From the NCBI RefSeq assembly GCF_003790525.1, contig NZ_CP033635.1: a stretch of 64,000 bases of DNA. One strand, written 5' to 3'. Source of the stretch: Escherichia coli. Lineage in GTDB: Bacteria > Pseudomonadota > Gammaproteobacteria > Enterobacterales > Enterobacteriaceae. Shown piece by piece: positions 2,916 to 52,099 of this stretch. Below the pieces are notes generated by a model, which saw only the letters and a program-made list of their open reading frames with translations, was not told the DNA's origin and searched no databases. Both the position numbers and the translations under genes were made by a program. Every line of letters starts with the position of its first letter. The first letter of the stretch is position 1.

Positions 2916-3305
2916 ATGCTGGTTTCTTGCGCAATGCGACTTCACTCGGGCGTTTTTCCAGATTATGCTGAAAAATTACCTCAGGAAGAAAAGATGGAAA
3001 AAGAAGATTCATTTCCCCAACGCGTCTGGCAAATCGTCGCCGCTATTCCCGAAGGCTATGTCACCACTTACGGTGATGTGGCGAAACTGGCAGGATCGCC
3101 CCGCGCCGCGCGCCAGGTGGGCGGTGTGTTAAAGCGTCTCCCTGAAGGCAGCACCTTGCCCTGGCACCGGGTGGTTAATCGCCACGGCACAATTTCGCTA
3201 ACCGGACCGGATTTACAGCGTCAACGACAGGCATTACTGGCAGAAGGTGTGATGGTATCGGGAAGCGGGCAAATCGACTTGCAGCGTTATCGCTGGAACT
3301 ACTAA
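2916..3305 (+). CDS. atl: alkyltransferase-like protein Atl (YbaZ)
   Basis: ORF 2895..3305; internal Met gives ~129 aa; MGMT-like C-terminal fold without the active-site Cys motif; synteny. Confidence 0.85.
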   Translation: MLVSCAMRLHSGVFPDYAEKLPQEEKMEKEDSFPQRVWQIVAAIPEGYVTTYGDVAKLAGSPRAARQVGGVLKRLPEGSTLPWHRVVNRHGTISLTGPDLQRQRQALLAEGVMVSGSGQIDLQRYRWNY

Positions 3306-3327
3306 CCCTCTCCGGGCGGAGAGGGTT
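3304..3327. terminator. bidirectional stem-loop between convergent atl and ybaY
   Basis: AACCCTCTCCG-GGC-GGAGAGGGTT perfect hairpin. Confidence 0.7.
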
Positions 3328-3335
3328 AACTGCGC

Positions 3336-14885: not shown

Positions 14886-14938
14886 AGCGCAATAACCTTA
14901 CGTTGTTTTTATAAAAACTGTTATAAGTACAGAGGTCA

Positions 14939-17384
<2,446 letters not shown>

Positions 17385-31593: not shown

Positions 31594-32484
31594 ATGATGT
31601 TTAAGCAATACCTGCAAGTAACGAAACCAGGCATCATCTTTGGCAACCTGATCTCGGTGATTGGGGGATTCCTGCTGGCCTCAAAGGGCAGCATTGATTA
31701 TCCCCTGTTTATCTACACGCTGGTTGGGGTGTCACTGGTTGTGGCGTCGGGTTGTGTGTTTAACAACTACATCGACAGGGATATCGACAGAAAGATGGAA
31801 AGGACGAAGAATCGGGTGCTGGTTAAAGGCCTGATCTCTCCTGCTGTCTCGCTGGTGTACGCCACCTTGCTGGGTATTGCTGGCTTTATGCTGCTGTGGT
31901 TTGGCGCGAATCCGCTGGCCTGCTGGCTGGGGGTGATGGGCTTTGTGGTTTATGTCGGCGTCTACAGCCTGTACATGAAACGCCACTCGGTCTACGGCAC
32001 ATTGATTGGTTCGCTCTCCGGCGCAGCACCGCCAGTGATCGGCTACTGTGCGGTAACCGGCGAGTTCGATAGCGGCGCAGCAATCCTGCTGGCTATCTTC
32101 AGCCTGTGGCAGATGCCTCATTCTTATGCCATCGCCATTTTCCGCTTTAAGGATTATCAGGCCGCAAACATTCCGGTACTGCCGGTGGTGAAAGGCATTT
32201 CGGTGGCGAAGAATCACATCACGCTGTATATCATCGCCTTTGCCGTTGCCACGCTGATGCTCTCTCTTGGCGGTTACGCTGGGTATAAATATCTGGTGGT
32301 CGCCGCGGCGGTGAGCGTCTGGTGGTTAGGTATGGCCCTGCGCGGTTATAAAGTTGCTGATGATCGAATCTGGGCGCGCAAGCTGTTCGGCTTCTCTATC
32401 ATCGCCATCACTGCCCTCTCGGTGATGATGTCCGTTGATTTTATGGTGCCGGACTCGCATACGCTGCTGGCTGCTGTGTGGTAA
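31594..32484 (+). CDS. cyoE: heme O synthase (protoheme IX farnesyltransferase)
   Basis: ORF 31549..32484; start [14 protein letters not shown] gives 296 aa; UbiA-family prenyltransferase. Confidence 0.95.
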
Positions 32485-32498
32485 TACAACCTCTCTAT

Positions 32499-32527
32499 AA
32501 AAAAGGTGCTACGGCACCTTTTTTATT
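32499..32527 (+). terminator. rho-independent terminator of the cyo operon
   Basis: AAAAAAGGTGC-TACG-GCACCTTTTTTATT. Confidence 0.85.
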
Positions 32528-32537
32528 GTCTGAGATC

Positions 32538-32564
32538 AGAGATACGGCTAATAACCGTATCTCT
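32538..32564. promoter_or_regulatory. palindromic operator candidate 1 (AGAGATACGG-N7-CCGTATCTCT)
   Basis: Perfect 10-bp-arm inverted repeat just upstream of the -35 box. Confidence 0.5.
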
Positions 32565-32593
32565 TGACAGAGTGAGCATATGCACATAAATTA
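32565..32593 (+). promoter_or_regulatory. sigma70-like promoter of the DUF1778/GNAT operon
   Basis: TTGACA, ~16-17 nt spacer, TAAATT; sits between two related palindromes. Confidence 0.55.
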
Positions 32594-32598
32594 ATCAC

Positions 32599-32613
32599 AC
32601 GGTTGATAGCCGT
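32599..32613. promoter_or_regulatory. palindromic operator candidate 2 (ACGG-N7-CCGT, shares GCCGTAT half-site)
   Basis: Second related inverted repeat just downstream of the -10 box. Confidence 0.45.
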
Positions 32614-32668
32614 ATTATGCATGAGATCGACTCCCTACGATTTCATTCAGTTAATCAAAGAGGTCATA

Positions 32669-32980
32669 ATGCCTGGAAAAACAGTCGCTCTACCCGATAT
32701 CGATAAAACGCTGAAAAATGCGCGGGTTGAACTCAAAACCAGCCCCGACGCCAAAAACAAACTTCGTGAAGCTGCGCAAGCCGTTGGGGTAGATTTAAGC
32801 GCTTTTATTTTGAGCGCAGCTATGGAACGCGCCGAAAGTGTGCTTGATAACCAACGTCGCCGTGAGCTTTCGAATCAAAGCTGGGAACTGATGAACCAAC
32901 TCATCGCTGAACCTGCTCAACCGACGCTCGCCCTCAAGGCGTTAATGAAAAGGAAAAACAGCGATGGTCGACAAGCATGA
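32669..32980 (+). CDS. DUF1778 (TacA/AtaR-like, RHH) antitoxin of a GNAT toxin-antitoxin pair
   Basis: ORF 32603..32980; Met MPGKTVALPDID preceded by AAAGAGG Shine-Dalgarno; ~103 aa; 17-bp overlap with downstream GNAT gene; resembles TacA/AtaR-type antitoxins. Confidence 0.75.
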   Translation: MPGKTVALPDIDKTLKNARVELKTSPDAKNKLREAAQAVGVDLSAFILSAAMERAESVLDNQRRRELSNQSWELMNQLIAEPAQPTLALKALMKRKNSDGRQA

Positions 32981-33506
32981 AGAGATTACTCTGCCCATAG
33001 TCCTCTCCTGTAATTATCAGTCTGATATTACTTATCCTGGGCAAAAACAGTTTGATTGCGGTAACCCTGTTATCGATAAATTTGTACGCGCATCGCTAAA
33101 GAAAAGTGTGCGTAATAGCGACTGTGCTGCTAAAGCTCTTATTGACAGACAAAGTGGTGAACTGATTGGCATCTGTACTTTTACGGCATATTCGCTGGAA
33201 AAACAACGCGTTTCTGGCGTCCTTCAGGGTTCACAACCTTCAGAGATTGGTGTTGTCAGATTAGTCATGTTAGGGGTAGCGCGGAAATATCAAAAGCGGG
33301 GCTTTGGTCAGGACCTACTATGTGATTTTTTTGAACATGTAAAAATAATTCACCGGGCATTACCAATTAAAGGGGTTTATCTTGATGCTGACCCTGCCGC
33401 CATTAACTTTTATACTCGCCTCGGCTTTGTTCAGCTTTCAGCGAGGCCCAATGTTTTCGGTGCTGTACCGATGTTTTTAGCGATTCAGCATATTCTCGCG
33501 GCTTAG
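32964..33506 (+). CDS. GNAT-family acetyltransferase toxin (TacT/AtaT/ItaT-like, predicted aminoacyl-tRNA acetylating)
   Basis: 180 aa; N-terminal FDCG motif; acetyl-CoA binding loop RKYQKRGFGQDLL; C-terminal FYTRLGF as in AtaT-like toxins; translationally coupled to the antitoxin. Confidence 0.75.
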   Translation: MVDKHEEITLPIVLSCNYQSDITYPGQKQFDCGNPVIDKFVRASLKKSVRNSDCAAKALIDRQSGELIGICTFTAYSLEKQRVSGVLQGSQPSEIGVVRLVMLGVARKYQKRGFGQDLLCDFFEHVKIIHRALPIKGVYLDADPAAINFYTRLGFVQLSARPNVFGAVPMFLAIQHILAA

Positions 33507-33561
33507 ATTATTATCGCCTCCGGCCAGGGCTAGTTTTGCCTCAGCCGGGGACTGAGCAGCG

Positions 33562-34497
33562 TTACCACTTTTGTTCAATTGCCCCCGCTTTCAGCAACTC
33601 CACATCCTTGCCGTTAATGGTTGCCGTTGCGGCAACGATTGTGGTCCTTACAGTTGCACAAGATTTTCGCTCAAATTCCGGTTTATAAAGAATTAGAGAC
33701 GAATTACTGGTAAATGAATCAAATATGTAATCAGTAAAGCTAATATTCAGCCGGTTTAAACCGAAAGGCGCGAAGCCAACCGTTTGGTTAATCTCCTTAC
33801 CGGATGGGCTACGAATGCTGAATGTCACGCGAAGATTGGCCACTTCGCCTAATTTATTGGTGGTGGCGAAGAGGCTATCCATGCAGGAAAAACCTTTATC
33901 TAAAAAATTATCCCGCATCCCAGAACGGGTAACCGTGATCACGGGTAACGTATCGTCAACCGTTTTTCTGTCAATCATGTCTTTTCGACATGTAGCCAGA
34001 AAGTCTTCCGGACCACCATAAATGTGGACACCTTTATCAAGATATTCCTTCGCTTTCTTACAATCTACCTCAACATACTGACCATTGGCGTACATCATGC
34101 CCAACCTGGACCATGCTAAATTCACACCGTATTGCGCGGCCTGATTAAATAGTGCATACGCTTTGGCATAATCCACCCGCACCAGCTCACCGTCGTAGTA
34201 GATACTCCCCAGCGCTAACGGAGCTTCTCTATCACCGTGTTTAGCGGCTAACTCAAACCATTTAATCGCTTCCTGAACATCAGGTTTGGTATCAAAGCGA
34301 GGCTGATAATATTCCCAGCCTAACAGGCTCTGCGCGTCGACATCTCCCAATTCAGCCATTTTATGCAGTCTATTTATAACATCGGGCGCAGGTTGACCAC
34401 CGTATATGCTGTCATACAATTCATGCGCTTTCTCGCTTGCCACCACGCATGGTGAAACTATTAGCATTAAAGAAAATAATATTCTTTTAGTTAACAT
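33562..34497 (-). CDS. secreted Sel1-repeat (TPR-like) protein with uncharacterized C-terminal domain
   Basis: ORF 33562..34557; probable start MLTKRILFSLMLIVSPCVVA (signal peptide); several Sel1-like repeats (AAKHGDREAPLALGSIYYDG, AAQYGVNLAWSRLGMMYANGQ); low GC; no K-12 counterpart recalled here. Confidence 0.65.
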   Translation of the reverse strand: MLTKRILFSLMLIVSPCVVASEKAHELYDSIYGGQPAPDVINRLHKMAELGDVDAQSLLGWEYYQPRFDTKPDVQEAIKWFELAAKHGDREAPLALGSIYYDGELVRVDYAKAYALFNQAAQYGVNLAWSRLGMMYANGQYVEVDCKKAKEYLDKGVHIYGGPEDFLATCRKDMIDRKTVDDTLPVITVTRSGMRDNFLDKGFSCMDSLFATTNKLGEVANLRVTFSIRSPSGKEINQTVGFAPFGLNRLNISFTDYIFDSFTSNSSLILYKPEFERKSCATVRTTIVAATATINGKDVELLKAGAIEQKW

Positions 34498-34903
34498 GTA
34501 TACCTTTATGTTCTCTCTGTCATATATTTCCATAATAATTAACCACCAAACATCCATTTAATGAATAAATACAGTACCATAAAGGCCCAAGTAATAAGCA
34601 CACATTTAACCTGAAACATTATCATCGATGTCACCAAATCGTTTATTTAGTGAGATAAAAATAGCATGTTCGCAAGATAAAAAATGCACATAGCAATCAA
34701 GAAATAATATTATTACTTTTGATGTAAAACTATTTAGCTTTAAGAATAATTTTTTCAACATATAGAGCATTCATTTTATGAATGCAAAATAAACATACCT
34801 GACACACAAACTATTCTCCTCTGTAATATTTTCTCATTAACACTCTGTTTACCCAACATGCGCTCCGCACTACACTATGTGGGCATTTTTTTAAGAGGTG
34901 GTA

Positions 34904-38521: not shown

Positions 38522-38561
38522 TCGGATGCGGTAAACGTCGCATCTGACCAGATGCGACGTT
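38522..38561. repeat. REP-like palindromic unit between convergent yajL and thiI
   Basis: CGGATGCGGTAAACGTCGCATCTGACCAGATGCGACG. Confidence 0.5.
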
Positions 38562-52063: not shown

Positions 52064-52071
52064 TTGTGAGA

Positions 52072-52099
52072 ATGCCGGATTTCATATCCGGCATTTTTT
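52072..52099. terminator. rho-independent terminator downstream of tsx (shared with convergent yajD)
   Basis: GCCGGAT-TTCAT-ATCCGGC followed by TTTTTTA. Confidence 0.85.

Follow-up and report, generated by a model that had tools for sequence, protein, structure and literature searches.

Two palindromes bracket the promoter of the itaR-itaT operon of Escherichia coli, and it is very likely that they are the operators through which this GNAT/RHH type II toxin-antitoxin system regulates its own transcription. Both lie within a 64,000-nucleotide stretch of E. coli DNA that was analysed at its full length (the window). The original prediction, made from the sequence of this stretch, had placed two related palindromes around a toxin-antitoxin promoter, and the coordinates and layout are borne out, with conservation of the arrangement across genera. 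A role as operators is supported by this conservation, by a core that equals that of the KacAT operator, and by published repression of the promoter by ItaR together with ItaT. Autoregulation by ItaR-ItaT is already known; as far as the searchable literature shows, it is apparently the exact sites that are new. The kind of regulation is ordinary, being that of GNAT/RHH toxin-antitoxin operators of the KacAT/AtaRT type, with the modest twist that a second conserved operator adjoins the -35 box. None of this alters the general picture of type II toxin-antitoxin autoregulation; what is gained is a set of base-level operator predictions, together with the family consensus rTACGGCT-N3-AGCCGTAy, for an experimentally studied system. 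With these, operator mutants, EMSA probes and structural studies can be aimed at defined bases.

The itaRT operon and its published autoregulation

The cyoE gene ends at 32484 and is followed by its own rho-independent terminator on the plus strand (32497-32526; a 13-bp perfect stem and then a T run, with an RNA fold of -17.2 kcal/mol), which lies outside the itaRT island. This island of ~2.3 kb (about 32528 to 34810) sits between cyoE and yajR and is found in 1,368 of 5,426 complete E. coli genomes. Where itaRT is missing from an E. coli genome, the match to the window stops at the cyoE terminator (about 32527), and both palindromes are therefore part of the island rather than of the cyo DNA. 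Over 32440-33560 (1,121 bases compared) the window is 100% identical to strain SMS-3-5 and others. The remainder of the cyoE-yajR island consists of a minus-strand Sel1-repeat gene of 331 aa, convergent with itaT (33562-34557; PF08238, E = 2e-17), and an AT-rich tail at about 34560-34810. An itaRT orthologue with an ItaR 86% identical to that of the window also stands directly 3' of a terminator in a Pseudocitrobacter MAG (L003, 2840-3003), and this terminator ends in the same TTTTTTATTGTCTG junction as is found 3' of E. coli cyoE, so the sequences suggest that the island appears at the same insertion point in another genus.

The operon that carries both palindromes in its promoter comprises a DUF1778 RHH antitoxin gene and then a GNAT toxin gene, both on the plus strand. 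itaR (32669-32980) encodes a 103-aa ribbon-helix-helix antitoxin of the DUF1778/TacA family, matching Pfam PF08681 with E = 1e-17, and its closest solved relative is KacA (5zgn; E = 3.5e-11, 36% identity). itaT (32964-33506) overlaps itaR by 17 nt and encodes a 180-aa toxin in which a GNAT domain is detected with Pfam; it shares 97% identity along the whole protein with PDB 7byy, a toxin that the itaRT literature identifies as ItaT of E. coli HS (PMC6125619, PMC7367177). A Shine-Dalgarno element, GAGGT, lies on the plus strand at 32660-32664 and is invariant across 10 genera, standing 4-8 nt 5' of the ATG, and on the strength of this conserved element we take the ATG at 32669 as the start of itaR. 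An upstream TTG start at 32603, which gives the 125-aa annotation in some genomes, was rejected; it falls inside O2, at the predicted +1.

Transcription from this promoter has been studied by Wilcox et al. 2018 (PMC6125619), who placed the 172-bp itaRT upstream region before galK and obtained about 40-fold more expression than with a promoterless control. ItaR and ItaT together repressed this fragment almost to background, and ItaR with a catalytically dead ItaT also brought the reporter to near background, but ItaR alone had no effect in vivo (PMC6125619). The reporter fragment is described as '-183 to -11', and it holds O2 if numbered from the start codon, whereas a literal reading would have it contain O1 without O2. 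No operator, palindrome, inverted repeat, footprint or EMSA is mentioned by Wilcox et al. 2018, Zhang et al. 2020 contains no discussion of the itaRT promoter (PMC7367177), and a full-text literature search for ItaR with 'operator' returned nothing relevant. Since ItaR alone did not repress in vivo, binding by the antitoxin on its own may be very weak.

The two palindromes and their conservation among genera

O1 (IR1), a predicted operator at 32538-32564, is a 27-bp palindrome, AGAGATACGG-CTAATAA-CCGTATCTCT, whose perfect 10-bp arms (32538-32547 and 32555-32564) are separated by the 7-nt spacer ctaataa. Its core, ATACGGCT-N3-AACCGTAT, is centred about -49 from the predicted transcription start, and its last T (32564) is also the first T of a perfect TTGACA -35 hexamer on the plus strand (32564-32569). 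A promoter scan joins this hexamer to a plus-strand TAAATT -10 hexamer (32587-32592) across a 17-nt spacer, with 10 of 12 matches, and so agrees with the -35 and -10 regions originally assigned, which are also conserved across genera; transcription is predicted to start at about 32599-32600. O2 (IR2), the second predicted operator, occupies 32593-32619 (core 32597-32615) and reads AATCACACGG-TTGATAG-CCGTATTATG. Its inner arms are ACGG (32599-32602), which begins 6 nt past the predicted -10 box, and CCGT (32610-32613), with ttgatag between them and AT following (to 32615). In the window strain the perfect arms of O2 are only 4 bp long, with 6 of 8 positions matching on extension. Relative to the predicted start site, O1 would span about -61 to -35 and O2 about -6 to +20, so that O1 overlaps the predicted -35 box and O2 the predicted +1.

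Both palindromes have (T)ACGG arms whose midpoints are 11 bp apart, an AT-rich centre and an overall extent of ~27 bp. A half-site of the form GCCGTAT/ATACGGC had been described as common to the two, and each does contain one perfect and one imperfect copy of this 7-mer. We would refine this view by analogy with related systems, in that each palindrome would by itself be a full operator, accommodating two RHH dimers (one heterohexamer), rather than one half of a site. An exact 7-nt direct repeat, TGAGATC, which includes a Dam GATC, flanks the operator-promoter region at 32531-32537 and 32622-32628. Another E. coli allele has lost this repeat and other genera do not have it, so we have treated it as chance.

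A perfect 10-bp inverted repeat is, on its own, weak evidence; six loci in the window carry one, compared with 0.7 expected from simulation. The other perfect inverted repeats of at least 10 bp in the window (14931-14955, AGAGGTCATAACTGGTATGACCTCT; 3303-3328; 38534-38561; 52071-52095) are probably terminators or REP-like elements. A more discriminating measure is a weight matrix derived exclusively from 29 unique sites at orthologous loci outside E. coli, the consensus of which is the family consensus given above. When the 64 kb of the window were scanned with this matrix, O1 scored 29.2 bits and O2 21.7 bits, and the next best position scored 6.4 bits.

Homologues of ItaR with 56-96% identity to the window protein occur in many Enterobacterales genera. 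A scan of one genome per species gave 22 orthologous loci outside E. coli, from Pseudocitrobacter, Edaphovirga, Phytobacter, Rahnella, Buttiauxella, Chimaeribacter, Trabulsiella, Serratia, Kluyvera, Superficieibacter and Xenorhabdus, and in all 22 an exact ACGG-N7-CCGT stands no more than 260 bp upstream of the antitoxin match. The density of this motif is correspondingly uneven, with 29 sites in 5.7 kb of upstream DNA versus 4 in the remaining 133 kb, and three of those four outlying sites are partner sites a few bases past the 260-bp cut-off. On the protein side, the ItaR beta-strand KNARVELKTS varies little or not at all across 29 homologues (at least 90% conserved), and within it K16, R19, V20, E21, K23 and S25 are strictly invariant.

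An alignment of 10 genera locates the conserved bases precisely. The invariant columns are TACGG..T...A.CCGTA in O1, TTGAC of the -35 and TA...T of the -10 in the promoter, CGG.T...AGCCGTA in O2, and the GAGGT and ATG of itaR; there are no other invariant columns. Twelve orthologous loci share a two-site layout, measured by script except at locus L010, which was read by eye from the alignment. In this layout O1 is followed by 5-6 nt, TTGAC, 17 nt, TAnAnT, 5-11 nt and then O2, and the 17-nt spacer between the -35 and -10 boxes is kept in 12 of 12. The spacing between O1 and O2 varies from 54 to 60 bp among these loci, which speaks against the sites being strictly phased on the helix or joined by looping, and a model of that kind found no support.

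Two sites are not obligatory, since Xenorhabdus and some other loci have a single good site. In Xenorhabdus (L013, L016-L022 and L024, at about 2860-2960) there is one perfect extended palindrome, ATGTACGGCT-N3-AGCCGTACAT, with KacAT-like outer bases, which overlaps a -35-like TTGCAT hexamer; at the second position there is only a degenerate remnant (AATGctat..CCAT/CCGT). Complementarity of the outer arms is slightly above chance as far as 5 positions outside ACGG, and this raised palindromy may be partly due to the related Xenorhabdus loci. Conservation does not extend to the full 10-bp perfect arms seen in E. coli O1. The paired operators and promoter stand about 215-285 bp 5' of the antitoxin in three loci, namely those of Edaphovirga, one Rahnella rivi copy and Serratia sp. 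PL17 (L004, 2716-3000; L006, 2719-3000; L012, 2726-3000). Between promoter and antitoxin these three loci have a short ORF (MKFTANVFNLNRFRCIF, MRNQSKALNFSRFIKLS and MSLKKIQNLNNFKGIPFTGKR) with a common N-[LF]-[NS]-[RN]-F motif; this ORF could encode a leader peptide or represent a third gene.

Comparison with related systems and a proposed mode of repression

The closest comparison is with kacAT of Klebsiella pneumoniae, for which a complex of composition KacA4-KacT2 (KacT-KacA2-KacA2-KacT) has been crystallised on the DNA AAATGTACGGTTATTAACCGTACATGA, the core of which is ATGTACGG-N7-CCGTACAT (PDB 5ZGN; PMC6698736). O1 resembles this operator in its TACGG-N7-CCGTA core, its 27-bp extent and its AT-rich centre. 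In the KacAT structure a single RHH dimer makes the contacts at each arm, with two R8 side chains binding the guanines of the CG step, D10 binding C8 and C18', and R12 binding G5, the purine two bases outside ACGG (PMC6698736). In a HMMER alignment these three residues correspond to R19, E21 and K23 of ItaR, all invariant in the 29 homologues, and the substitutions from KacA to ItaR at base-contacting positions are conservative, D becoming E and R becoming K. The common ACGG core can thus be linked to the arginine and acidic residues that ItaR and KacA share, and the replacement of R12 by K23 is paralleled by a looser purine requirement two bases outside ACGG, where A or G is found and A preferred. 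The operators of the ItaR clade are unlike that of kacAT in this preference for A over G outside the core and in having CT...AG added inside the spacer (ACGGCT-N3-AGCCGT).

The two systems can also be compared in the placing of their sites. The kacAT palindrome is reported to span the transcription start (PMC6698736), and O2, just past the -10 and over the predicted start, has the same position. Four KacA/AtaR-type loci have a single GTACGG-N7-CCGTAC directly 3' of a -10-like element, and no equivalent of O1 was found in the four examined. The second palindrome abutting the -35 box therefore distinguishes itaRT from kacAT-type loci, and more widely the ItaR clade usually has two operators sandwiching the core promoter, whereas the crystallised KacAT-type loci have one. 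A precedent for a two-site layout is provided by the tacAT promoter of Salmonella enterica, where EMSA resolves two separable sites for the TA complex at -81 to -46 and -46 to -6 (PMC5449658); to that extent tacAT and itaRT are alike. They differ in the part played by catalysis, since TacT is described as acetylating TacA and altering its binding (PMC5449658), whereas ItaR was not found to be acetylated and repression of itaRT is independent of ItaT catalysis (PMC6125619).

For ataRT of E. coli O157:H7, an AtaT-AtaR4-AtaT complex on a palindromic operator has been described (Jurenas 2019 and Yashiro 2019, as cited in PMC8138530 and PMC6698736). According to these sources, AtaRT forms a heterohexameric repressor only with the toxin, and the antitoxin alone binds weakly, which parallels the failure of ItaR alone to repress. 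The AtaRT side of our operator comparison consists of AtaR-like plasmid loci, which have one GTACGG-N7-CCGTAC site. More distant systems such as relBE and phd-doc embody the same concept, with the toxin acting as co-repressor at a low T:A ratio and excess toxin breaking the repressor. Their toxins are unrelated, and they fill adjacent sites cooperatively, as opposed to the one preformed hexamer per palindrome that is envisaged for ItaRT.

Taken together, these comparisons make ItaR the predicted reader of both operators. By homology with KacAT and AtaRT, one ItaT-ItaR2-ItaR2-ItaT heterohexamer would occupy each palindrome, with one ItaR RHH dimer per arm inserting its beta-sheet (R19, E21 and K23) into the major groove, and we infer both this direct contact between ItaR and the bases of O1 and O2 and the 4:2 stoichiometry. 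Occupancy of O1 would block the -35 and the UP-element region, occupancy of O2 would block the start site, which is itself a prediction, and with both sites filled RNA polymerase may be kept off the promoter or trapped there. The toxin would serve as a co-repressor by fixing two ItaR dimers 11 bp apart, in the right geometry, an idea that fits the lack of repression by ItaR alone. The original prediction had also proposed conditional cooperativity. One part of that proposal stands, in that the toxin is needed as a co-repressor (PMC6125619). The other part, de-repression when the toxin is in excess over the antitoxin, comes only from the homologues KacAT and AtaRT, for which it is reported in PMC6698736 and PMC8138530, and by analogy with them it would be expected for itaRT. 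The distinction between the systems is that binding and conditional cooperativity have been measured for KacAT, whereas binding by ItaRT is predicted.

The motif ACGG-N7-CCGT is common to ItaR and to KacA/AtaR (36% identity), so co-resident modules could cross-regulate one another's promoters, and the question of cross-talk is thereby raised for GNAT/RHH modules that share a cell. As an example, chromosomal itaRT could be found in one E. coli cell with plasmid kacAT-like or ataRT modules. Under such cross-regulation, only the inner CT..AG bases and the extra, -35-proximal O1 would confer specificity. A further possibility is that hexamers on O1 and O2 are bridged by toxin dimerisation, so that the two operators together would act as a ratio sensor, unlike the single-site mechanism of KacAT. 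That one or other of these two schemes, cross-regulation or bridging, operates here is a speculative suggestion that we consider unlikely.

Other explanations and variation within E. coli

The observation that ItaR needs ItaT for repression bears directly on whether the palindromes might instead be operators for ItaR alone or for a host regulator, with no role for the toxin at the DNA. DNA binding by the antitoxin on its own is seen in many type II systems, and KacA alone shifts its own operator, albeit weakly (PMC6698736). However, ItaR alone was without effect in vivo under conditions in which ItaR with ItaT repressed to near background (PMC6125619), and the arm spacing and 27-bp extent of the sites match the DNA bound by hexameric KacAT. 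A host factor would not explain why all 22 loci, from different genera and genomic contexts, have the sites together with an ItaR homologue, and overall we hold a toxin-free reading to be improbable. It is rather less probable that the palindromes act as structural hairpins, with IR1 serving as a second terminator, an insulator or a 3'-end stabiliser for cyoE read-through and IR2 as a hairpin in the itaRT leader. IR1 does sit 11 nt past the cyoE terminator and folds at -14.9 kcal/mol (z = -6.5), and the outer-arm complementarity described above would be in keeping with a stem. Yet IR1 is not called by a terminator scan, having TGACAGAG directly 3' and no U tract, and it is borne by the island rather than by cyo and conserved beside unrelated upstream genes. 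The fold of IR2 is weak (-5.4 kcal/mol, z = -1.7), and a scan of 32400-32800 against Rfam gave nothing above threshold, the best scores being no higher than 22 bits against thresholds of 40-55. Moreover, what is conserved is the sequence rather than the pairing. ACGG/CCGT (fixed by the search itself) and the T/A just outside them never vary, so that covariation is absent; at the innermost spacer pair, where the base 3' of ACGG faces the base 5' of CCGT, only 21 of 31 sites have complementary bases, without compensating changes, and outer palindromy amounts to just 1-2 bp in half of the O1 sites.

The position of O1 within the island invites a different reading, in which the palindromes would be recombination or integration sequences of the cyoE-yajR island and O1 would mark its end. 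O1 begins 10 bp inside the left island junction, and in strain TR01 the island has been lost whilst an exact O1 survives, the deletion ending at the right arm of this palindrome. Against this, the junction in TR01 has the appearance of a microhomology deletion (TC), O2 lies in the interior of the island, and the right island end has no matching repeat, the next best matrix score in the window being only 6.4 bits. In other genera the distance of the sites is fixed to the -35 and -10 boxes and not to an island border. Such an account thus fits O1 alone and E. coli alone, and we consider it very improbable. Chance similarity without function is the least probable explanation of all. ACGG-N7-CCGT occurs twice in the 64 kb of the window, and two occurrences were reached in 26 of 100 shuffles, so the count alone is unremarkable; but both copies fall in one promoter, 55 bp apart, a gap of 15 bits separates them from the next best site, and they are conserved across genera. 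Autoregulatory operators bound by ItaR with ItaT remain the reading that we prefer, and the variation seen among E. coli genomes is described below with this in mind.

The allele in the window, which is of the SMS-3-5 type and is represented by 86 genomes at 99% identity or above, has a C at position 32598 of O2 (CACACGG). The commoner E. coli allele, which 1,283 genomes of the 95-99% identity band carry (E. coli W among them), has a T here, which gives O2 arms of ATACGG/CCGTAT. A T is found at the equivalent position in 32 of 32 exact sites of the 22 orthologous loci, and the C at this otherwise invariant T leads us to predict that O2 may be a weaker site in the window strain, as judged from its bases.

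The 'O157:H7' strain TR01 mentioned above (L025, 590-650) is a different case, in which the island is absent apart from its first 34 bp, with O1 complete. The retained stretch corresponds to 32528-32561 of the window and directly abuts the right end of the island (about 34837), giving the junction ATTAACACTCTGTTTACCC. From its sequence this junction looks like a deletion scar that has left an orphan operator behind. The typical O157:H7 strain EC4115 (L028) has a K-12-type empty site.
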